DNA of 28,820 nucleotides, from the IMG/VR virus record IMGVR_UViG_3300027906_002908, positions 1-28,820 of that record; one strand, given 5' to 3'. The stretch comes from a virus (taxonomy: Duplodnaviria > Caudoviricetes). The notes beneath the pieces are model-generated. The model was not told where the DNA came from. It did no database searches and was given only the letters and a program-made list of their open reading frames with translations. Every line of letters starts with the position of its first letter. The stretch's first letter is position 1. Of the stretch, positions 1 to 21,329 are shown in pieces. The position numbers and the translations under genes were made by a program.

Positions 1-567
1 CATTGGTATAATGGAAATGAATTTGATATGTCTATTATACATGAAGCAATAGAAGTAATACCAGATAGAACAAAAATAGTTATTCGTAGCACAGTTGGCC
101 CAAACAACTTAGAAGACACTTGGATACATTGGCCCGAATTCTTGCGAGAAAAGAATTGGGAAGAAGACTCAGATGATAAGTCAATTCCTTTTATCGTTGG
201 TGCTGATGGAGACACGCAATCAGAGATGGAATCTTGGTTTACAAATAGAAATACTATATTTGTTTCCCCCAAAACAGCTGCGATGTATAAGTTGTCTAGA
301 AACGCGATGTTAGCTGCTAAGGTAACTATGGCAAACTATATTCATACTGCATGTGTAGAACAAAATGTAGAATATAACAATGTATCGAAGTTATTGAAGA
401 CATACGCAAACCTTGGAACCTCTCATTGGGATGTGCCAGGCCCAGATGGAGAATATGGTTTCGGTGGTTCTTGTTTTCCAAAAGACACTACACACTTTGC
501 GTCAATGTTAGGTAATCAGAGTAATATCTTTACTCATGTTTTGAGGTGCAATGAACGAGGTCGCTAA
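1..567 (+). CDS. UDP-glucose/GDP-mannose dehydrogenase family protein, 5'-truncated by window edge
   Basis: Motifs VIRSTVGP, PEFLRE, K..RNA.LA.K and GPDGEYGFGGSCFPKD (catalytic Cys). Frame is open from base 1 (cat tgg tat aat...), so the true start is upstream. Confidence 0.85.
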   Translation, partial: HWYNGNEFDMSIIHEAIEVIPDRTKIVIRSTVGPNNLEDTWIHWPEFLREKNWEEDSDDKSIPFIVGADGDTQSEMESWFTNRNTIFVSPKTAAMYKLSRNAMLAAKVTMANYIHTACVEQNVEYNNVSKLLKTYANLGTSHWDVPGPDGEYGFGGSCFPKDTTHFASMLGNQSNIFTHVLRCNERGR

Positions 568-1828
568 ATACCTAGATGACATTACAAGAAGAAACAACGA
601 AATCGGTAAAGGGTTCTGTGTTCTAAAGTGGTGGCATTTAGAAATGCACTTAGGCACAGGTAACTACCATTCCTGTTTTCATTGCCCACAGCAAAACCTT
701 AAACTTGATGAAGATATGCATAATACTCTTCATAAGATACAACAAAGAAAGACCATGTTGGAAGGTGGTAGACCAGATGAATGTTCTTATTGTTGGAAGG
801 CTGAAGATGCTGGTGCGGTAAGTCCCAGAACAACTCTCACTCCAATATACACTCAGATGGAAGAGGATATTATTGAGACTACTGCTAACTTAAAGTGGGA
901 TGAGTATGTGTATCCGAAATACTTGGAGATGAGTTTTTCAAATACATGTCAAATGAAATGTTCTTATTGTGCTCCCTCTCTAAGTTCTACTTTGTTACAG
1001 GAAATAAAAAAAGAAGGTGCATACCCTCTTGTAGACCCAGAGAATAGAGGTCAATATGAATTGAATGGAACAGAGGAACTTTATAAGGATGATGATAACC
1101 CCCTGTTAGATAAGTTTTGGGATTGGTTTAGTGAGGCAAGAAAACATCTTAATACTTTAAGAATAACTGGTGGAGAACCCCTGTTACATAAAAGTACATT
1201 TGATATGATGGATAGATTGCGTGGAGAGTCTATTAACTTCCATGTAAACAGTAATCTATCAGTTTCTAATAGAAGGGTTACAGAAGCATGTAACTTATTA
1301 CCAGCGAAGTCTAAGATATATGCTAGTGTAGATACATTCGGAAAACAGGCGGAGTGGATTAGACACGGACTTAACTGGGACTTGTTTGACCAGAATGTTC
1401 TTACTGTTATCAACCATAAAATTCCTTTGAGTTTTATGACTACATTTTGTTTATTAAGTATTCCAAGATTCAAGGACTTCTTATACTATGTTGTACAACT
1501 AAAAGATATAGGGGATGTATTGATTGATACACCATTTATGACAAACCCGCCTCATCTATCATGTCTTATAATGGATGATGATATGAGAGAAACATTAGAA
1601 GACAGTTATCAGTTTATGTCATATAACAAAGAGTTTAATCACGCGGAAGTTGTGAAATTTGAGAGACTACTTAAATGGGTAGACGCAAATAGGTTTACTG
1701 GAGAACGCCTAAATAGTCATAGAAAGGATTTTAAAATATTTGTCGATGAACACGATAGACGGAGAAACACTAACTGGCACGAATCGTTTCCAGAGTTGAC
1801 ATATTTTTATGAGTTATGTGATGGCTGA
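551..1828 (+). CDS. Radical SAM enzyme with N-terminal twitch/SPASM-like Cys motif (#1)
   Basis: CQMKCSYC (CxxxCxxC), ITGGEP, NSNLS, SVD..G...EWIR; N-terminal C-x13-G-x4-C...CSYCW; C-terminal D.RR...FPEL. Confidence 0.9.
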   Translation: MNEVAKYLDDITRRNNEIGKGFCVLKWWHLEMHLGTGNYHSCFHCPQQNLKLDEDMHNTLHKIQQRKTMLEGGRPDECSYCWKAEDAGAVSPRTTLTPIYTQMEEDIIETTANLKWDEYVYPKYLEMSFSNTCQMKCSYCAPSLSSTLLQEIKKEGAYPLVDPENRGQYELNGTEELYKDDDNPLLDKFWDWFSEARKHLNTLRITGGEPLLHKSTFDMMDRLRGESINFHVNSNLSVSNRRVTEACNLLPAKSKIYASVDTFGKQAEWIRHGLNWDLFDQNVLTVINHKIPLSFMTTFCLLSIPRFKDFLYYVVQLKDIGDVLIDTPFMTNPPHLSCLIMDDDMRETLEDSYQFMSYNKEFNHAEVVKFERLLKWVDANRFTGERLNSHRKDFKIFVDEHDRRRNTNWHESFPELTYFYELCDG

Positions 1829-3209
1829 AAACAAACCCAATGAGTTTTGGATTGAACAATTAAAACAAAAAAGAAAAAAGATTAATGAGATTAGTCCTTC
1901 TTTTTGTTCTGCTAAGTGGTTGCAGACTACTCTGTATTTGCAGAATGGTTATAATCACTCTTGTCACCATCCCTCGCCTCATAAAATACCAGTAGAAGAA
2001 GTATTAGAGAATCCAGCAGCTCTTCATAATAGTAAGTATAAGAAACAACAGAGAATAAAGATGCTCAATGGGGAAAGACCCAAAGAGTGTGATTACTGTT
2101 GGAGAATAGAAGACCAAGGTAAAGACCATTTTTCTGACCGCCATTATAAGACCGCTGATTGGTGGTCATGGGATAAGGTTGATATTATTGCAACTGATAA
2201 CCCTACAAAAGATGTCTATCCAACATATCTAGAAGTATCCTTTTCAAACGCATGTAATTTCGCGTGTGCGTATTGTTCTCCAGAGATTAGTTCTAAGTGG
2301 ATGAAGGACATAGAAAAGAATGGCGACTATCCTGTACAGTTTGGTTCTGGTAATTTAGACTATTTAAGAGAAGTAGAAAAGTTCCCTTATAAACACTCTG
2401 ACCCAAACCCATATGTTGATGCATTTTGGAAATGGTTTCCAGAGGCACTCCCTCACTTGAAAGTATTCCGAATGACAGGCGGTGAACCTACCATGAGTAA
2501 GGATGTATGGAAAACTTTGGATTACATATACGAAAATGCAAACCCAGAGTTGTCTATTGCAATTAATAGTAATTTGGGTACACCCCCAGACCTAATACAA
2601 AAACTTGTTGATAAAGTAAATAAATTAAAAGATAAAGTCAAACAAATTGAGATATATACTAGTGCAGAAGCAATAGGAGAACAAGCAGAATATATTAGAG
2701 ATGGCATGGATTACGATTATTGGCGTGCCAATGTAGAAAAGGTATTATCAGAAACAGACGCGAATGTAGCAATAATGACTACATTGAATATATTGAGTAT
2801 GACTACTTTTGACCAGTTTATTGATGATATAATGCAGTTAAGGATAAAGTATAATAAAGATTTAGCAAATAATAGAATACCGTTAAGTATAAACTATTTG
2901 AGATTCCCGCCTCACCTACAATGTACCTTGTTAGATAGGACTACAAGAATATCCTATGCACAGGATTACGAATTGACCGCTAAGGTTTGGTTGAAATATA
3001 ATTCACCAGATATGTTCGCAAGAATTTATTTGGAAGAGTATGACCAGATACAGAGGTTCTGTGAATACCTTAGGCAAGAACACAAAGGTGCTGAAAAATA
3101 TAGAGCAGACTTTGTAAATTATATAAAAGCCTACGATATCAGAAGAGAGAAAAACTTTAGCAAAACTTTTCCAGAATATGCACATTTATTGGAGTGGTGG
3201 GATGACTAA
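1821..3209 (+). CDS. Radical SAM enzyme, twitch-like (#2)
   Basis: CNFACAYC, MTGGEP, INSNL, EYIRDG; CSAKW...G...SCHHP...CDYCW. Start placed at ATG 1821, overlapping the upstream stop (ORF track gives 1809). Confidence 0.9.
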   Translation: MAENKPNEFWIEQLKQKRKKINEISPSFCSAKWLQTTLYLQNGYNHSCHHPSPHKIPVEEVLENPAALHNSKYKKQQRIKMLNGERPKECDYCWRIEDQGKDHFSDRHYKTADWWSWDKVDIIATDNPTKDVYPTYLEVSFSNACNFACAYCSPEISSKWMKDIEKNGDYPVQFGSGNLDYLREVEKFPYKHSDPNPYVDAFWKWFPEALPHLKVFRMTGGEPTMSKDVWKTLDYIYENANPELSIAINSNLGTPPDLIQKLVDKVNKLKDKVKQIEIYTSAEAIGEQAEYIRDGMDYDYWRANVEKVLSETDANVAIMTTLNILSMTTFDQFIDDIMQLRIKYNKDLANNRIPLSINYLRFPPHLQCTLLDRTTRISYAQDYELTAKVWLKYNSPDMFARIYLEEYDQIQRFCEYLRQEHKGAEKYRADFVNYIKAYDIRREKNFSKTFPEYAHLLEWWDD

Positions 3210-3429
3210 AAAATACATTCATGTAAACATGCACAAGATTCGTGCTAATAAAAAACATGGAACAAACGAACCTGTTCTTACAGTAAAAGAGGGAAGAAAA
3301 AATACTTATGGACATAGTGTAAAGATACATGGCCCGAGTGAAGTAATATATGGTGGGAATGATAAACCATTGTTACCATGTGGGGCGAGAGTTGTTATAA
3401 TGACAGAAGCGGAGATTGAAATTGAATAA
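3202..3429 (+). CDS. Small basic hypothetical phage protein
   Basis: ATG 3202 preceded by GGAG-TGG and coupled to the upstream stop; IHVN..KIRAN...PVLTVK...Y...V.I.GPS...Y...L.CGARV pattern looks like a recurring phage family. Confidence 0.7.
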   Translation: MTKKYIHVNMHKIRANKKHGTNEPVLTVKEGRKNTYGHSVKIHGPSEVIYGGNDKPLLPCGARVVIMTEAEIEIE

Positions 3430-4924
3430 AGAGTATGATTTGATAAAATATCGTAAAGATATTCTTGATACCAAGTCAACAAGTTTTTGTGGTGCGAAGT
3501 GGTATAATGCTACTACATGGTTAGGTAGTGGTACTACTGCTTCTTGTCATCACCCCCCAGCACATAAAATTCCATTACACGAGATTTCAGCTGACCCATC
3601 CGCAATTCATAACACGCAACACAAGAAGGCAATGCGTAAGATGATGCAACGCGGAGAGAGACCGCGTGAGTGTGAGTATTGTTGGAAAGTTGAAGACATG
3701 GGAACTGATGCTGTTAGTGATAGAGTATATAAGTCAATCATATACACCAACTCAGATTTAAAGAAGGCTCACGAAGCAGACCACAATGATAATACATTAT
3801 TAAAAACATTTGAGATTGCATTTGACCGAACATGTAACCTTGCGTGTTCTTATTGTAACTCTAGTTTCTCTACTACATGGGCGAAGGATATAAAGAAACA
3901 TGGCCCTTATCAAAACATGGTATCAGATGGTGCAGCTGCCTTTCAACATGACGGTGCGTGGGCAGACCCATATGGTAAGAAAGAAGAGAACCCATATGTA
4001 ACAGCGTTCTGGGATTGGTGGGAAGATGGACTATCAGAGAGTCTTGAAGAATTGAGGGTTACAGGTGGCGAACCGTTAATGTCTGACCAAGTATGGAAGT
4101 TGTTTGATTGGTTTGAAAACAATCCATCTGATATGCGATTCGCAGTAAACTCTAATCTTATTGCGAAGAAAAGTATTGTTGATAGATTGATAGAGAAGTC
4201 ACAGGGTGTTAAGAAGTTTCACCTTTACACTAGTTGTGAAGCAACAGGAAAACAAGCTGAGTATATAAGGGACGGACTTGACTATGAACTCTGGACTAAC
4301 AATATAACGAGATTTATTAAAGAAGGTAATTATGAAGGCATTAATATAATGATGACCATTAACAGTTTGTGTTTGTTTAGTATAACAGACTTCTTAGATG
4401 ATGTATTCAAACTGAAAGAATTGACAAAAAGTAAAACGCCTGTGTTTAGTGTCAACCTATTGAGATTCCCTAGTTTCCAAAGTCCACTCTCACTACCAGA
4501 CCATATCAAAGATTACCTTAGAGAGAATCTATCTAACTGGTATGAAGAAAACAAAGACAGACCATACTGGCATGATTTTGAAAAGGCAAGTGTTGAGAGG
4601 TTGATAGACTATCTTGTAATCGTTGATGCTCCACATAGAAGGACTAGTGACAAGATGACTTTGTGGAGAGATTTTAAAACCTTCTATGGACAGTATGATA
4701 AAAGAAGAGATAAAAGTATTTCTGTTTTTCCAGAAATCCTTACTGATTGGATAGACACTCTTCCAGACACAGAAACTAAACCAATTACAGTTATGCCTAG
4801 TGGTGATAGTACGGAACAATACGCGGATGACCCAGATTTGAAAAAAATCGCAGAAGAGGAAGGATGGGTATTGAAACCAGATAATAAGAATATAGACGAA
4901 GCCTTAGGCGACTATGATAAATGA
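3416..4924 (+). CDS. Radical SAM enzyme, twitch-like (#3)
   Basis: CNLACSYC, VTGGEP, VNSNL, EYIRDG; CGAKW...G...SCHHP...CEYCW; acidic C-terminal extension. TTG start at 3416 or 3422 (GGAG at 3411). Confidence 0.9.
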   Translation: MKLNKEYDLIKYRKDILDTKSTSFCGAKWYNATTWLGSGTTASCHHPPAHKIPLHEISADPSAIHNTQHKKAMRKMMQRGERPRECEYCWKVEDMGTDAVSDRVYKSIIYTNSDLKKAHEADHNDNTLLKTFEIAFDRTCNLACSYCNSSFSTTWAKDIKKHGPYQNMVSDGAAAFQHDGAWADPYGKKEENPYVTAFWDWWEDGLSESLEELRVTGGEPLMSDQVWKLFDWFENNPSDMRFAVNSNLIAKKSIVDRLIEKSQGVKKFHLYTSCEATGKQAEYIRDGLDYELWTNNITRFIKEGNYEGINIMMTINSLCLFSITDFLDDVFKLKELTKSKTPVFSVNLLRFPSFQSPLSLPDHIKDYLRENLSNWYEENKDRPYWHDFEKASVERLIDYLVIVDAPHRRTSDKMTLWRDFKTFYGQYDKRRDKSISVFPEILTDWIDTLPDTETKPITVMPSGDSTEQYADDPDLKKIAEEEGWVLKPDNKNIDEALGDYDK

Positions 4925-4933
4925 GGAAAAAAA

Positions 4934-5491
4934 ATGCTATTTAAAAAAATAAAATTTGACTATGATTTAAACACCTTTTTGAGTGGGGATTTTACTCAAC
5001 ACTATGGAAGTTGTATTTCATATCAAAAAAGAGAACAAACGGATATCCATAAATCGGTTGGTAATGGATTCCCAGAAAGTTATCATGAAGATAATACTAG
5101 AATACAACAAATATGGTGGGAACCATCTGATATTGATTATGAAGCAATAGGGGAACAGTTAGACATTGATGTAAAGACAATTAGTGCCATTTTACAACCG
5201 CCTGGCAATACTGTTACTTTGCACCGAGACACATTTTTTAAATTCAAGACTCTTTATCCCGATGATGATAGGTTGAAGGTTAGAGCAAACATATTTTTAG
5301 AGGATTGGAAAGTAGGTCACTTCCTACAATATGAGGATGGTAATGGTGAGTGGATAAATTGCACTCATTGGAAAGCTGGAGAGGGATTGTTATGGGACAG
5401 CACTCCGCGTCACCTTAGTTGTAATGCTGGACTACATGACAAATATACTCTACAGGTAAGTGGATTTTGGAATGGGAAAAATAACTGGTAA
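4934..5491 (+). CDS. 2OG-Fe(II) oxygenase / Asp-hydroxylase-like cupin
   Basis: PGNTVTLHRD (HxD) and a distal H in RHLSCNAG; double-stranded beta-helix-like pattern; GAGG SD. Confidence 0.65.
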   Translation: MLFKKIKFDYDLNTFLSGDFTQHYGSCISYQKREQTDIHKSVGNGFPESYHEDNTRIQQIWWEPSDIDYEAIGEQLDIDVKTISAILQPPGNTVTLHRDTFFKFKTLYPDDDRLKVRANIFLEDWKVGHFLQYEDGNGEWINCTHWKAGEGLLWDSTPRHLSCNAGLHDKYTLQVSGFWNGKNNW

Positions 5492-6785
5492 TAGACCTTA
5501 TCTTTGTACTGCACCGTGGACTCATACTTATGTATCACCACAAGGCGAAAGAAGATTGTGTTGTGCTAGCAGAGAAGAGGCATCTTTCCAAAAACAGTAT
5601 TTAGATAGTGGAACGGCAAAAGGAAAGTTTGAACCACAGTCTTTAGAGGAACATTGGAATAGTGATTATATGAAAGATATCCGTAAAAGGATGTTAGCAG
5701 GAGAAAAATTAAAACAATGCCAAGTATGTAATGACCAAGTTTTAAACCTACACACATATCGTCAATATTTTACCGAAACATTGTTCCCCCACAAAGTAGA
5801 AGACATTATAGCAACTACGCGAGAAGATGGACATTATGATAAGATGCCAGTCTCGTATGATTATCGTATTTCAAATCTATGTAACTTTAAATGTCGGATG
5901 TGTGGGGAACAATTATCTTCCAGTTGGGAAGCAGAAAAGAAAAAGAACAATCTTATAGATGTTGTACAAGACCCTTGGATGGAACCAACCACCAGAAAGA
6001 AAATATCGAATTTTCAAGAAGAGGTGTTAGAAGAAGAACTACAAAAGGCAGTCGATGATAAAACTATAGAGGAAATATATTGGGTTGGTGGTGAACCATT
6101 GATGTGGGAAAGACATTGGACTATCATGCAACAATTGGTAGATAATGGCCACGCGAAAAATGTTACTATCCGTTATAATACAAATTTAAGTAGAGTAAAA
6201 TATAAAGATTATAATTTATGGGACATGTTACCGCACTTTAAGAATGTTAATATATGTGCCAGTATTGATGGTGCTTATGAAGTGGGAGAATATATCAGAG
6301 ATGGACTAGTATGGAGTGAGTGGATAGAAAACTTTAAGTCTGGTATGTTTTTAATAGACCAGTTTGGTGATGATGCATTAGTATTTGATGTAACTCTAAC
6401 AACGCCAGGCTTATTTCATCTTAACAAGTTAATTGATGTCGCTAGTTCTCTTGATATAAAATCATACTTCAAATTTACATATGCATTTGACCCTAGTGTT
6501 GTCATGTCACCGTTTTGTATTCCTAAAGATGTACTTTTACCTCAAGTTGATTCATTAATGCAACATATAGAGGAAAGACTAACATGGAAAACAAAAGTTT
6601 ATAAGGATTCTCTGGTTAGTCTAATAAATAGAGAGTCATTTGATGAACAATGGCCTGACACATATAAAGATGGATTGAAACGCGGAAAACAGTTTCAAGA
6701 ATATCTCGATGATTTAAGAAAATCCAAACTGAAGTTTGTTGATACACTTCACGGTAATGCCGTGGATTGGTGGAATAGAATATGA
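5472..6785 (+). CDS. Radical SAM enzyme, twitch-like (#4)
   Basis: CNFKCRMC, VGGEP, YNTNLS, SIDG, EYIRDG; CTAPW...G...LCC...CQVC. ATG 5472 preferred over GTG 5460. Confidence 0.9.
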   Translation: MGKITGNRPYLCTAPWTHTYVSPQGERRLCCASREEASFQKQYLDSGTAKGKFEPQSLEEHWNSDYMKDIRKRMLAGEKLKQCQVCNDQVLNLHTYRQYFTETLFPHKVEDIIATTREDGHYDKMPVSYDYRISNLCNFKCRMCGEQLSSSWEAEKKKNNLIDVVQDPWMEPTTRKKISNFQEEVLEEELQKAVDDKTIEEIYWVGGEPLMWERHWTIMQQLVDNGHAKNVTIRYNTNLSRVKYKDYNLWDMLPHFKNVNICASIDGAYEVGEYIRDGLVWSEWIENFKSGMFLIDQFGDDALVFDVTLTTPGLFHLNKLIDVASSLDIKSYFKFTYAFDPSVVMSPFCIPKDVLLPQVDSLMQHIEERLTWKTKVYKDSLVSLINRESFDEQWPDTYKDGLKRGKQFQEYLDDLRKSKLKFVDTLHGNAVDWWNRI

Positions 6786-8008
6786 GCGAAACATTTTGTC
6801 CATTACCTTGGAACCATTTAGCAACCCATCCACATGGGATATGCACTCTATGTTGTGAATCAAACCAAGAGGAAGGACAATCACAAGCTTTCAATCATAC
6901 TAGAAACAAAGCTTTTAGAGAATTTTTGACATTACAAAAGGTTGATGATTTTTCTGAGATTACCAATTCTGATAGTTTCAGTAAAGTTAGATTAGAAATG
7001 CTCAATGGAGAAAAACCAATTGAGTGTAGTAAGTGTTGGGAAGCAGAAAGTGTAGGAAATAAAAGTAAGCGATACTATGAAAGTCGCCGTCTTCCTATGA
7101 CTTTAGAACAGGCAAAAAAAATCACAAATGACGATGGTACATTAAAAGAGGTCAACTATGAATTTGTGGAATTACGCCTTGGTAATCATTGTAATGTTCA
7201 ATGTCGTACTTGCAATCCTTATTCGTCTTCTAGGTGGTTAAAGGATTGGGATAACATATACCCAGAAAGAAGAGCGCTTCCAGAATTCACGCGGAAGAGT
7301 AGTTTTAACTGGCCATTGGAAGAAGATTTCTGGGAAAAACTTATTGATAAATGCAACGAATTGAAATTGTTGTATATCAATGGCGGTGAACCTTTTCTTA
7401 TAGACAAACATTTTAACTTTTTACAGACTTTAGTTGATAGAGGGATATCGAAGAATGTAGAGATAGTCTATTCTACTAACTGTACAATTATTAACCACAC
7501 ATATGAAGACATATGGAAGGAATTTAAAAAAGTACAGTTTATGTTATCTATTGATTGTGTCGGTGAAAGAAATGAGTACATTAGAACATATACCTCTTGG
7601 TCAAAGGTATTAGAATTTGTAGATTGGATGAAAGATATAACATGGCAATACAAAAACCTAGATTATAACATACTTCAAACCGTATCTACATATAACATCT
7701 TTTATATACCAGAATTCTACGAGTATTTTGAGGGAGAACATATAAGTCATAATTTTGTAAAAGACCCCGCTCAATATGACCCCCTAATTTTACCGCAACA
7801 AGTACAACAAAAGATTTTAGACAAGTTGTCTGGGTGTGGGGGATATGATGTTGTTAAGAATTACTTTAATATAGAAGGCATCTCATATACTGACTTGGAA
7901 GTAATGAAGTCTTTCTTTCAAAAAACTGGTGCCATGGATGTTACGAAAAAAACATCTTTTAAGAAAACCTTCCCAGAATTTTATGAGTTAATTAAAGATT
8001 ATGAGTGA
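6782..8008 (+). CDS. Radical SAM enzyme, twitch-like (#5)
   Basis: CNVQCRTC, NGGEP, YSTN, SID, EYIR; CPLPW...G...LCC...CSKCW; ATGA overlap with the previous gene. Confidence 0.9.
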   Translation: MSETFCPLPWNHLATHPHGICTLCCESNQEEGQSQAFNHTRNKAFREFLTLQKVDDFSEITNSDSFSKVRLEMLNGEKPIECSKCWEAESVGNKSKRYYESRRLPMTLEQAKKITNDDGTLKEVNYEFVELRLGNHCNVQCRTCNPYSSSRWLKDWDNIYPERRALPEFTRKSSFNWPLEEDFWEKLIDKCNELKLLYINGGEPFLIDKHFNFLQTLVDRGISKNVEIVYSTNCTIINHTYEDIWKEFKKVQFMLSIDCVGERNEYIRTYTSWSKVLEFVDWMKDITWQYKNLDYNILQTVSTYNIFYIPEFYEYFEGEHISHNFVKDPAQYDPLILPQQVQQKILDKLSGCGGYDVVKNYFNIEGISYTDLEVMKSFFQKTGAMDVTKKTSFKKTFPEFYELIKDYE

Positions 8009-9218
8009 CAAGAAAAATCTATGTATGTTACCTTGGGTGCATTTGCACACATGGCCTAATGGTAATGTATATCCTTGTTGTATCACTCCAATGGAATACA
8101 TTGCTGGTAATTTAAACGATAACAGTTTAGAAGAAATATACAATAGTGACTTGATAAAAGATATCCGCGTGAAGATGTTGAATGATGAAAGACATGATGC
8201 ATGTTCAAGGTGTTATCACCAAGAAGATTCTGGTGGGCACTCCATGAGACATAGAGCAAACAAGTCATGGAAACATTATGAAAACTTAATTGAAACCACA
8301 GAGGATGATGGTACGATAGAAGAAATGAAACTCCCCTACTGGGATTTTAGATTTTCTAATATATGTAATTTCAAATGTCGTAGTTGTGGCCCTCAGTTGA
8401 GTACTGGTTGGTATCCAGATACAAAGAAGATTGCTGTTTTGGAAACAGGTAGGTCATTCCTACCAGACGATGTACCCAAGAAGAATACTTTTGATTTATG
8501 GGAACAGATAGAACCACACTTTGAATCTGTAGAAGAAATATATTTCGCTGGTGGCGAACCTCTTATAATGGAAGAACACTATCGCATATTAAAGAAACTA
8601 GACGCGATGGGTAAACACGATGTACTTATTAGATACAACACAAATTTTAGTGAGATGCGATATAAGGATTTGCATGTCTTGGAGTTCTGGCCGAAGTTTA
8701 AGAATATAGAGGTTGGTGCTAGTATAGATGGGATGGAAGAACAAGGAGAATTTATTCGTAGTGGATTTAACTGGGAACAGTTCAAAGAAAATAGAAACCG
8801 AATGAAAGAAACATGTTCTCATGTAAACTTTTATGTTAGTTCTACTATTAGTATTCAAAATGCATATCATGTAATACCATTCCATCACGCGCTTGTGGAC
8901 GGCGGATATATTGACAGTTACAACTCTTTTAATGTTAATATTGTTACAGAACCGAAACACCTTGATATGAGGATTTTACCACAACACCACAAAGTAGAAT
9001 TAGAAAAACTCTACCAAGAACACATTGACTTCTTGTCCGAAAAAAGTCTTTGGTCTGTAAAACAGGGATTCGATACTTTAAAAAATCATTTGATGCAAGA
9101 CTTAGATGGAGAACACCTCGAAGTGTTTGAATATAAAATGAAACAGTTGGATGAGTTAAGGGGAGAAGACTTCCAGAAAACTTTTCCCGAACTAGAGGAC
9201 TTATATCATGTCCGATAA
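8001..9218 (+). CDS. Radical SAM enzyme, twitch-like (#6)
   Basis: CNFKCRSC, FAGGEP, YNTN, SIDG; CMLPW...GNVYPCC..GNL...CSRCY. Confidence 0.9.
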   Translation: MSDKKNLCMLPWVHLHTWPNGNVYPCCITPMEYIAGNLNDNSLEEIYNSDLIKDIRVKMLNDERHDACSRCYHQEDSGGHSMRHRANKSWKHYENLIETTEDDGTIEEMKLPYWDFRFSNICNFKCRSCGPQLSTGWYPDTKKIAVLETGRSFLPDDVPKKNTFDLWEQIEPHFESVEEIYFAGGEPLIMEEHYRILKKLDAMGKHDVLIRYNTNFSEMRYKDLHVLEFWPKFKNIEVGASIDGMEEQGEFIRSGFNWEQFKENRNRMKETCSHVNFYVSSTISIQNAYHVIPFHHALVDGGYIDSYNSFNVNIVTEPKHLDMRILPQHHKVELEKLYQEHIDFLSEKSLWSVKQGFDTLKNHLMQDLDGEHLEVFEYKMKQLDELRGEDFQKTFPELEDLYHVR

Positions 9219-10389
9219 GATATGTGTATTGCCTTGGGTTCATACAGAGTTCACTACAGATGGAACCGCGAATCCATGTTGTTTATATAAGGGCAATCCT
9301 ATGGGGAACCTAAAACAAGAAAACTTTCTTGATGTCTGGAATGGAGAACCATATAAGAATTTGCGAAGAGAGTTTCTTGAAGGCAAACAACCGTCTGGAT
9401 GTGCCATGTGTTGGGAAGGAGAAGAGGCAGGATATCAATCAAAGAGATTACAAGATAATAAAAGATTTGCCAAAGAACTTGAAGAGATAAAAGAAAGAGG
9501 AAGTTTTATTGCTACTGATACTCCGAAATATCTTGACTTGAAGTTTGGTACATTGTGTAATTTAAAGTGTAGAACTTGTGGTAGTATAAACAGTTCAAAG
9601 TGGCAGACCGATGAGAAAAAACTATACGGTAGAATTCTAAACAAAAAAGACCCTCTGTGGATTATTAAAAATCCAACTGTGTGGGATGAGTTATTTGAAA
9701 TCATGCCATTGATAGAGCAAATGGACTTCACAGGTGGTGAACCATTTATGATAGAAGAACATTTTGAGTTATTGCGTAGAACAGTAGAGGCAGGACACGC
9801 GGAACATATATCCTTACATTATAACACAAATGGAACTATTCGTCCACCACAAAAAATATTTGATTTGTGGAAAGAGTTCAAGTCTTGTGAAGTAATGTTT
9901 AGCATTGATGGAATATTCAAGAAATTTGAATATATCAGACACCCAGCAAAATGGGATGAAGTGTGGGATAACTATAACTACTTTAAATCACTTGATTGGA
10001 TGTATGTCCAAGTATGTCACACAGTTAGTCTTTATAACATATATTACTTGGACGAATTTGTAGAGATGTTTGGAAGAGATAATATATATCTAAATCTCTT
10101 GCACTTTCCTAGACAGTATTGTGTTAGGAATATGCCAGATGTATGTAAAAAACAGGTCGAGGATAAACTTATAAATATTCCAGATATGAACGATATCATA
10201 TCGTTTATGAATCAAGAACCCAATTTCGATAAACTAGACCTTGGGTTTTTACCTGTTACAGAAAGATTAGATGGATTGAGAAATGAATGTTATAGTGAAA
10301 TATTTTCAGAATTTTATAGGATATTAGTTGATGGTGGAATTGGAAAAGAACCTTGGAACCCTAAACAGTACTTTGGACAAATTAGTTGA
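9208..10389 (+). CDS. Radical SAM enzyme, twitch-like (#7)
   Basis: CNLKCRTC, FTGGEP, YNTNG, SIDG, EYIR; CVLPW...G...PCC..GNL...CAMCW. Confidence 0.9.
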   Translation: MSDKICVLPWVHTEFTTDGTANPCCLYKGNPMGNLKQENFLDVWNGEPYKNLRREFLEGKQPSGCAMCWEGEEAGYQSKRLQDNKRFAKELEEIKERGSFIATDTPKYLDLKFGTLCNLKCRTCGSINSSKWQTDEKKLYGRILNKKDPLWIIKNPTVWDELFEIMPLIEQMDFTGGEPFMIEEHFELLRRTVEAGHAEHISLHYNTNGTIRPPQKIFDLWKEFKSCEVMFSIDGIFKKFEYIRHPAKWDEVWDNYNYFKSLDWMYVQVCHTVSLYNIYYLDEFVEMFGRDNIYLNLLHFPRQYCVRNMPDVCKKQVEDKLINIPDMNDIISFMNQEPNFDKLDLGFLPVTERLDGLRNECYSEIFSEFYRILVDGGIGKEPWNPKQYFGQIS

Positions 10390-20135: not shown

Positions 20136-20795
20136 ATGTTTACACATATTGAAGAAAAACACGCCTTTCCCCAGTTAATGAGGGAGAATTTTGAAGGAAA
20201 ACGGACATATGTAACGGAAAATGGTGATAGATATCCCTCTATCACCACCGTTCTTGGTTATAAGATAAAACCCGCTATAAAAGCGTGGAGAAAAAAGGTA
20301 GGAGAACAAGAGGCGAACAAAATATCGCGTCAATCATCTGTTCGTGGAACCAAAATTCATGGTGTTTGTGAGGATTATCTTAATAATAAGGAACTTGATA
20401 CTGAAATGTTGTCCTTTGTAGAGACAGATATGTTCGATAACATGCGCCTTTACCTTGATAAGATAAATAACATACACGCGATTGAACAATTTTTGTACAG
20501 CGACCATCTAAGGTTGGCTGGACAAGCGGATTGTATCGCTGAATTTGAGGGAAAATTGTCTATTATTGACTTTAAGACCTCTGCTAAACCGAAAACCAAA
20601 TCATATATTAAGAACTATTTCGCTCAATGTGCTGGTTATGCCGTCATGTTTGAGGAAAGAACAGGAATACCTATCACAAATTCAGTAATTATTATTGGTG
20701 TGGCGAATGAAGAACCACAATTGTTCATAGAACATCGTGATAATTACACAGATTACTTGCTAGAATGTCGAGATTTGTACGAAAATAACGCTTGA
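20136..20795 (+). CDS. PD-(D/E)xK exonuclease (T4-like phage exonuclease / Cas4-like fold)
   Basis: YPSITTVL, RGTKIH, E...S...AG..DC, IIDFKTS, Y..Q..GY. Confidence 0.85.
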   Translation: MFTHIEEKHAFPQLMRENFEGKRTYVTENGDRYPSITTVLGYKIKPAIKAWRKKVGEQEANKISRQSSVRGTKIHGVCEDYLNNKELDTEMLSFVETDMFDNMRLYLDKINNIHAIEQFLYSDHLRLAGQADCIAEFEGKLSIIDFKTSAKPKTKSYIKNYFAQCAGYAVMFEERTGIPITNSVIIIGVANEEPQLFIEHRDNYTDYLLECRDLYENNA

Positions 20796-20825
20796 CTTTT
20801 GGCCCATCTTATAGTATTATAAATA
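20792..20825 (+). promoter_or_regulatory. Overlapping sigma70-type promoter and T4 late promoter upstream of tmRNA
   Basis: TTGACT (20792-97), 17 nt spacer, TATTAT (20815-20); TATAAATA (20818-25). Confidence 0.7.
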
Positions 20826-20829
20826 ACTT

Positions 20830-21186
20830 AACTCGATGAAACAAGTCGAAGGGTTTACAGGACGGGGGTGCAATTCCCCCCGCCTCCACCAAAAGGAGAT
20901 TAGTCATGGTAAACGGTGCTGGAAAATGGATGTTAAGAATGTATATTCTTTGGAGTATCATTGCAGACATCACTTTAGTTTCTGGAATCATTTACTTAGT
21001 CTTTTTTTGATGGGGGCGATTAGGATCGACTGGAACTTAATAGGTGCGTGGAGAGTTCGGAGAGGAAGCTACCGTAAGTGCAACAAAACTATAAATGCAG
21101 AAAATAATACTGCTTATGAGGATTACGCTTTAGCGGCGTAAAATCGCTCGGGGTTTCGGACAGTTCCTAGCACCAGAATACTGTCC
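20830..21186 (+). ncRNA. ssrA: Circularly permuted (two-piece) tmRNA: acceptor piece about 20830-20891, intervening segment 20892-21011, coding piece 21012 to about 21186
   Basis: T-arm GGGGG-TGCAATT-CCCCC (20864-80), then CGCCTCC-A-CCA (20881-91). Downstream GGGGGCG (21012-18) completes a 7-bp acceptor stem with G3:U70. Tag frame 21097-21141 reads AENNTAYEDYALAA*. Terminal stem GGACAGT/ACTGTCC (21158-86). Outer ends are approximate. Confidence 0.93.
20906..21010 (+). CDS. 34-aa hydrophobic peptide encoded in the tmRNA intervening segment
   Basis: AAGGAG (20893-98), 7 nt, ATG; MVNGAGKWMLRMYILWSIIADITLVSGIIYLVFF*; stop ends 1 nt before the coding piece. Confidence 0.65.
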   Translation: MVNGAGKWMLRMYILWSIIADITLVSGIIYLVFF

Positions 21187-21218
21187 TAACAAATTCTCAA
21201 AGAGAAGGAGGAGAAGAT

Positions 21219-21329
21219 ATGTGGTTAATTACAGGACTCGTTATTGGGATAGTAATTGGAGCATGGATTAAAGACCGCAAAGGTTGGTTGGATTTTCTTG
21301 ACACATTGTTTGACAAGATACCATTCTAA
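21219..21329 (+). CDS. 36-aa single-pass membrane protein
   Basis: Strong SD AAGGAGGAG; MWLITGLVIGIVIGAWIKDRKGWLDFLDTLFDKIPF* (GxxxG TM helix plus amphipathic tail). Confidence 0.7.
   Translation: MWLITGLVIGIVIGAWIKDRKGWLDFLDTLFDKIPF

Follow-up and report, generated by a model that had tools for sequence, protein, structure and literature searches.

A conserved membrane-type peptide gene in the intervening segment of a permuted phage tmRNA, probably read from the nascent precursor

The window, by which we mean the whole 28,820-nt stretch of DNA analyzed here (IMG/VR record IMGVR_UViG_3300027906_002908), is a segment of a marine, T4-like phage carrying genes for PhoH, an exonuclease, a cell-wall hydrolase, gp33, gp59 and gp32, the last of which has its best cultured-phage match in the OM43 phage Melnitz (54%). 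A permuted tmRNA was located at 20796-21232 by ARAGORN and matched two Rfam models (RF04321, 114.7 bits; RF01849, 89.4 bits); no other family was detected when the window was scanned against Rfam. The RNA has the layout that these two models describe: an acceptor piece with the T-arm and CCA comes first, downstream of it lies the coding piece, with which the acceptor stem starts, and the tag reading frame, AENNTAYEDYALAA, ends in ALAA-type residues. Upstream of it, a sigma-70-like promoter motif and a T4-type late promoter motif overlap each other. Among the 93 scorable loci of the family described below, a -35-like TTGAC is present in 88, the late motif in 88 and both together in 85. The segment between the two tmRNA pieces, hereafter the spacer, holds a 34-codon gene (Table 1).

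Table 1. Features of the tmRNA locus (window coordinates)
Feature	Position	Strand	Basis
T4-like exonuclease gene, upstream neighbor	20136..20795	+	phrog_298, E 1.4e-70; exonuclease also in 69/80 relatives' loci
Sigma-70-like promoter site, TTGACT-17-TATTAT	20792..20820	+	10/12 consensus match; predicted by motif
T4-type late promoter motif, TATAAATA	20818..20825	+	sequence motif
tmRNA acceptor piece, CCA at 3' end	20830..20891	+	Rfam RF04321 alignment; exact 5' end inferred
Intervening segment (spacer), 120 nt; predicted single long hairpin extending the acceptor stem	20892..21011	+	fold -31.4 kcal/mol
Shine-Dalgarno site (SD; AAGGAG 20893-20898), 5' strand of predicted closing stem	20892..20902	+	sequence and folding
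34-codon gene, single-helix membrane-type peptide	20906..21010	+	reading frame, selection, hydropathy, helix model
Final ORF codons, 3' strand of predicted closing stem	20997..21007	+	folding
tmRNA coding piece	21012..21187	+	tag frame 21097-21141 (AENNTAYEDYALAA); ARAGORN, Rfam

Two other parts of the window deserve mention. Directly 3' of the tmRNA, at 21219-21329, lies a second SD-led hydrophobic ORF of 36 codons that adjoins the cell-wall hydrolase gene and is present in 21 of 21 close relatives; it is a better holin candidate than the spacer gene. Farther away, at 551-10389, a long tandem series of large ORFs with CxxxCxxC motifs, which we take to be radical-SAM-like, is followed by sugar-modification-like genes.

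The initial annotation described the spacer as an SD, an ATG, 34 codons and a TGA ending 1 nt before the coding piece, and this holds except that one extra A separates the CCA from the AAGGAG; 7 nt then lead to the ATG, and the TGA (21008-21010) is followed by a single T before the coding piece opens with GGGGGCG. When the spacer was shuffled 20,000 times, a closed ORF of at least 30 codons arose in 4.9% of the shuffles, and one preceded by an AGGAG-type SD in 0.025%. The exact fit at the 3' end should be read with more caution. A TGAT ending is generic in this clade, closing 11 of 20 distinct spacers that hold no ORF, so the 1-nt fit makes use of a leader end that was already there and does not count as separate evidence. 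We also considered programmed read-through or frameshifting into the tag. The window has a 101-codon frame that reaches the tag, but only 7 of 74 relatives keep such a frame open, and their offsets are mixed; we rejected the idea and put the frame down to chance.

Whether the ORF is a gene is best judged from its relatives. A peptide alignment search matched 143 viral loci, of which 80 were taken for analysis, the best 80 per query being kept; the scored set, also 80, comprised the fetched loci minus one incomplete locus plus the window. The ORF was scored as nested in a tmRNA spacer at 75 of these 80 loci, lay outside the spacer at 4 and was cut off on the 5' side at 1. For 39 distinct sequences compared across 28 core codons, dN/dS is 0.10, and 0 of 200 column shuffles reached a value as low. 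The frame contains stops in 0 of the 39 sequences, whereas each of the other five frames contains stops in 23-39 of them, and the variable columns fall 14, 7 and 25 on codon positions 1, 2 and 3. The same pattern holds for codons 13-33, nearly all of which lie outside the predicted RNA stems (pN 0.10, pS 0.51). Because peptide searches favor intact copies, a DNA-only search (CCA followed by an SD) was added, from which 120 of about 440 loci were taken; 70 of these were not tmRNA, 3 had no coding piece and 47 had complete spacers. An intact family gene is present in 41 of the 47 SD-led spacers, other ORFs in 6 and broken copies in 0 (pN 0.20, pS 0.71). The stop sits 1 nt before the coding piece in 94 of 95 distinct family spacers. 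The 120-nt form found in the window is known from just 4 distinct sequences; the two divergent ones differ from it by 4-5 amino-acid and 3-4 silent changes, so that the changes within this form alone are weak evidence of selection on it. The nested gene proposed in the initial annotation, which had suggested surveying the spacers of permuted phage tmRNAs for a conserved SD and ORF with dN/dS below 1, is thus borne out by the in-frame dN/dS, by codons 13-33 and by the peptide-blind sample: by the pattern of substitution, the spacer gene is real, conserved and under purifying selection.

The family to which it belongs is widespread, abundant in marine phages and nameless. With an E-value cut-off of 0.01 it comprises 221 proteins, reduced to 72 representatives at 50% identity, for which we found no name beyond 'hypothetical'. 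The window peptide has no match in PHROGs, Pfam, NCBIfam or the PDB, and its best ESM Atlas score, 0.86, is uninformative. Searches with 50 family members gave only single or double weak family matches, none of them to holin, toxin or S23p families. No cultured phage was found to encode the peptide, the 120-nt form giving 2 chance-level matches at E 4 and the 38-residue form none. An origin in host genomes was considered and rejected: the 3 matches in 185,579 genomes are a T4-like nested copy in a MAG, the end of a short MAG contig and a weak, unrelated-looking match.

The peptide is of a small hydrophobic membrane type. The hydrophobic C-terminal helix noted at the outset is confirmed by the best 19-residue hydropathy window (residues 14-32), which averages 2.12, and a 38-residue relative was modeled as a single helix spanning residues 4-37 (mean pLDDT 91.9). 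The most probable location of the peptide is the host inner membrane, where by the positive-inside rule its basic N-terminus would face the inside. Five residues are invariant in the family (Y13, W16, S17, D21 and G27), and by helical spacing they lie largely on one face of the helix, which suggests a binding surface. The peptide would act during infection through this one conserved face, with its buried Asp, by binding a host membrane protein or itself.

Most relatives carry a longer spacer of 159 nt, in which a first SD (SD1) and start codon open a leader ORF of about 19 codons, followed by a second SD (SD2) and the gene for a 38-residue peptide. The leader is in a different frame from the peptide gene and overlaps it, an arrangement like that of hok/mok. 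It is present in 91 of 99 nested genes and absent from the 120-nt form of the window, which is 39 nt shorter, so that there SD1 would drive the peptide directly. In 34 of 34 distinct leaders the start codon is at the same place, and stops in codons 2-6 number 0 against 14.8 expected; the distances measured for 80 simple leaders, 25, 28, 31, 34 or 40 nt, differ by multiples of 3 and always keep the same frame. The amino acids of the leader are nearly free to vary (pN 0.44, pS 0.55, no stops), and SD2 lies inside a predicted local hairpin. Of the 38 copies that were at first put in the free-standing class, 17 gave a positive leader test as well, a count that carries no chance control. In the available text of PMC9841398, translation of mok up to the toxin SD is required for hok expression; by analogy, the leader of the relatives may work through the same kind of coupling.

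These features raise the question of whether the product is a type I toxin-like peptide, or one for lysis or exclusion, with the leader and the long-range occlusion of the SD limiting a membrane-damaging product. A single hydrophobic helix with a charged residue would suit such a role, as would the constrained overlapping leader, the second SD held in a hairpin and, in the window, a cell-wall hydrolase gene 330 nt downstream. The resemblance to hok/Sok likewise extends to a small membrane peptide, long-range 5'-3' pairing (here predicted) and, in most relatives, an overlapping leader ORF. The differences are several, however: the context is that of a lytic phage, the occluding strand is itself coding, the window copy has no leader, and there is neither sequence similarity nor a sign of an antisense RNA. 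A motif scan found antisense promoter-like sites in 5 of 83 against 6 of 83 after shuffling, and we reject an antisense antitoxin on this lack of excess. Linkage to lysis was rejected as well, a hydrolase lying within the flanks of only 9 of 80, 5 of 80 and 1 of 35 loci, and no holin or toxin family was matched. We regard a toxin, lysis or exclusion role as quite unlikely.

The secondary structure of the spacer, as predicted, bears on when the gene could be read. The spacer folds into one hairpin atop the acceptor stem (z -3.2; 1 of 200 shuffles folds as well), and in the prediction SD1 base-pairs with the four final codons of the gene. Across 95 spacers 98% of the cells of this stem are paired, compared with 58-72% when the alignment is slid, and all 8 spacers that encode a peptide with a different end (KISF) retain the stem. 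The closing stem shows no significant covariation (104 of 500 shuffles score as high; Fisher p 0.30). Similar stems close spacers that hold no ORF, those of cultured phages included, and it is probable that the SD took over a stem that normally closes the spacer. In two copies located just upstream of a tmRNA the 3' end folds locally instead, which implies that long-range occlusion is not required by the gene itself.

For the window, the predicted probability that the SD is unpaired is 0.29-0.71 in the incomplete transcript and 0.00 from base 21011 on, while in the excised spacer it is 0.01-0.02; the predicted cost of opening the SD is 8.5 kcal/mol in the nascent RNA, 25.1 in the full precursor and 16.0 in the excised piece. 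Since the SD is predicted to be open in the nascent RNA and shut in both the precursor and the excised piece, translation is likely to be co-transcriptional and not to occur from a released mini-mRNA. The initial annotation had offered both routes, and these calculations make translation from the precursor the probable one. The other, in which the excised spacer is a working mRNA stabilized by its hairpin and activated by later 3' trimming, has in its favor that the spacer is a self-contained SD-ORF-stop unit and that hok mRNA is activated by 3' trimming (PMC9841398, available text). In the excised form, however, the SD is predicted to stay almost fully paired, and since the occluding strand consists of the last four codons, trimming it would remove the stop; we consider this route very unlikely.

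The occluded SD of the finished precursor would also be compatible with nested copies being silent passengers kept for RNA structure, with only the free-standing copies expressed. There is a precedent in the ORF for S23p in the 23S rRNA intervening sequence of Coxiella, which, according to the available text of PMC4990558, is decaying and apparently not made in vivo, the segment being cut out by RNase III. Our gene resembles that ORF in lying inside a segment, here putatively excised, of a stable-RNA precursor. It differs in being under selection, unrelated in sequence, of membrane type, and placed in a tmRNA between the CCA and the RNase P site. The codon-position-specific selection among nested copies, which acts outside the stems, and the frame-keeping leader both argue against silence, and this explanation seems to us highly improbable.

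The distribution of the gene shows how readily it is lost or moved. Among 21 loci whose exonuclease is 89-99% identical to that of the window, the 120-nt spacer is found in 5 and a 24-nt spacer with no ORF in 16. Flanking DNA identity to the window is 89-94% for the ORF-less loci (7 of the 16 compared), higher than the 83-87% of three carriers. The gene is, from this distribution, dispensable. Absence of the ORF from close relatives, one of the observations that the initial annotation named as counting against its reading, is thus seen in part, in 16 of 21 loci; a lack of purifying selection, another of them, is not seen, dN/dS being 0.10. A script sorted 150 distinct gene sequences into 99 plus 5 nested, 7 upstream of a tmRNA, 38 free and 1 unclear; inspection moved three (L220, L363, L409) to the nested class and one (L560) to the upstream class, giving about 107 nested, 8 just upstream and 35 free-standing, in which the nested share is over-counted because the best 80 matches per query were sampled. 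The late-promoter motif is present at 11 of the 38 copies first classed as free. Three free-standing copies (L532-L534) follow immediately on the 3' ends of tRNAs in phage tRNA arrays, which are a further stable-RNA setting for the gene. The family is also nested in beta-type tmRNA (L479, L587), besides the alpha type, and the nested state must have changed at least 3 times to fit the starred branches of a gene tree on 90 columns, itself weakly resolved. Both the ORF-less relatives and the free-standing copies weaken the obligatory tie between expression and tmRNA maturation that the initial annotation had put forward.

The spacer itself accepts other contents. Unrelated ORFs of 29, 22 and 35 residues occupy other spacers, and by this comparison the spacer is an exchangeable slot for mini-genes. 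In two beta-type tmRNAs (L329:622-711 and L369:526-594, the latter on the minus strand) different hydrophobic ORFs of 29 and 22 residues have an SD-led start and a stop placed as in the family gene, the stop again 1 nt short of the coding piece. Some spacers are polycistronic (L101:1364-1468, L108, L199 and L150:1241-1459), the family gene being preceded by an ORF of 33-35 residues, which ends in a Y(D/E)D(L/V)CM motif, or of 72 residues. Others (L003, L012, L110, L141 and L554) are structured, 60-130 nt long and recurrent, with no ORF and no Rfam match at the gathering score, and are possibly new RNA motifs; a 62-nt element recurs alone and, in L110, ahead of the family gene. Melnitz itself (MZ577097.1; L446:667-808) has a 142-nt spacer with an SD-led ORF that extends beyond the spacer by 42 nt, into the coding piece, and whose PKYL(S/T)G stretch recurs in a 50-residue ORF downstream of the tmRNA in L112. 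In some relatives the tmRNA tag frame is unusually long, at about 30 residues (L363:870-950).

That start and stop abut the two tmRNA pieces so closely suggests another reading, also foreshadowed in the initial annotation, in which translation of the spacer gates tmRNA processing. A ribosome on the spacer would block the acceptor stem, so that tmRNA matures only from ribosome-free transcripts and its output is tied to the supply of free ribosomes. Such gating is geometrically plausible: an initiating 30S subunit would lie over the CCA and over the 3' strand of the acceptor, which are 14 nt from the AUG, and a terminating ribosome would lie over the GGGGGCG, 1 nt from the stop. Nibbling of the stop from the 3' side could in addition let tmRNA tag the peptide, a feedback of the kind known for arfA. 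The start and stop geometry kept in 94 of 95 spacers speaks for a gate, as do the two unrelated membrane-type mini-genes and the longer C-terminal variant that keep the same positions, and the SD and the stem are the same bases. Against it stand the 16 of 21 close relatives with no ORF, the copies outside tmRNA, the TGAT of ORF-less spacers and the scarcity of an open frame into the tag. We judge a gate unlikely.

The reading we favor, and hold to be probably correct, is that a gene of this widespread membrane-peptide family sits in the tmRNA spacer and is read from the nascent precursor before its own 3' end shuts the SD. The gene would likely use the early and late promoters of the tmRNA, and ribosomes would load on the nascent precursor while the SD is open. 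The end of the coding sequence would then pair with the SD and shut the ribosome-binding site, and the closed stem would let the acceptor stem form. The two tmRNA pieces would be freed by RNase P, which processes tmRNA precursors, together with 3' trimming, and the silent spacer would be thrown away, as inferred from the known biology of two-piece tmRNA. The gene would thereby acquire strong promoters without burdening the mature RNA, its dose being capped per transcript. Since the gene would be read briefly before the RNA folds shut, one transcript would serve as both messenger and tmRNA precursor.

Permuted tmRNA genes of Alphaproteobacteria and marine myophages have the same gene order, tRNA-like ends and tag frame as the window, and in Melnitz, whose ssrA has been described (PMC9004378 and preprint, available text), the tmRNA occupies the same position, between the exonuclease and gp33. 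What sets the window apart from the known permuted tmRNAs is a spacer filled by a selected gene. Known spacer cargo includes a tRNA-Ala gene and a repetitive element (PMC11915505), and the available text of that paper mentions no protein-coding spacer gene; the word 'intervening' does not occur in the Melnitz paper PMC9004378, and the available texts of PMC10117765, PMC3978253 and PMC12320835 contain nothing on spacer ORFs. Our literature search, which covered sources outside subscription, turned up no description of a protein-coding gene within a tmRNA spacer. The initial annotation knew of no description of this arrangement either; ORFs in excised 23S rRNA spacers are the precedent.

The spacer of two-piece tmRNA has been treated as a throw-away, and annotation hides its contents, as the unannotated spacer ORF of Melnitz illustrates; in relatives of the window, with alpha- and with beta-type tmRNA alike, it serves as a slot whose contents are exchanged. 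If, as we think rather unlikely, the spacer is a switch in which a transcript is either held by ribosomes, making the membrane peptide, or snaps shut into tmRNA, then rescue capacity and a late membrane effector would be set reciprocally by the supply of free ribosomes, with mini-genes swapped in the same slot. The locus would be a natural case of one transcript choosing between the fate of an mRNA and that of a tRNA-like precursor, and it hints at a second reason, beside ribosome rescue, for marine phages to keep tmRNA genes.
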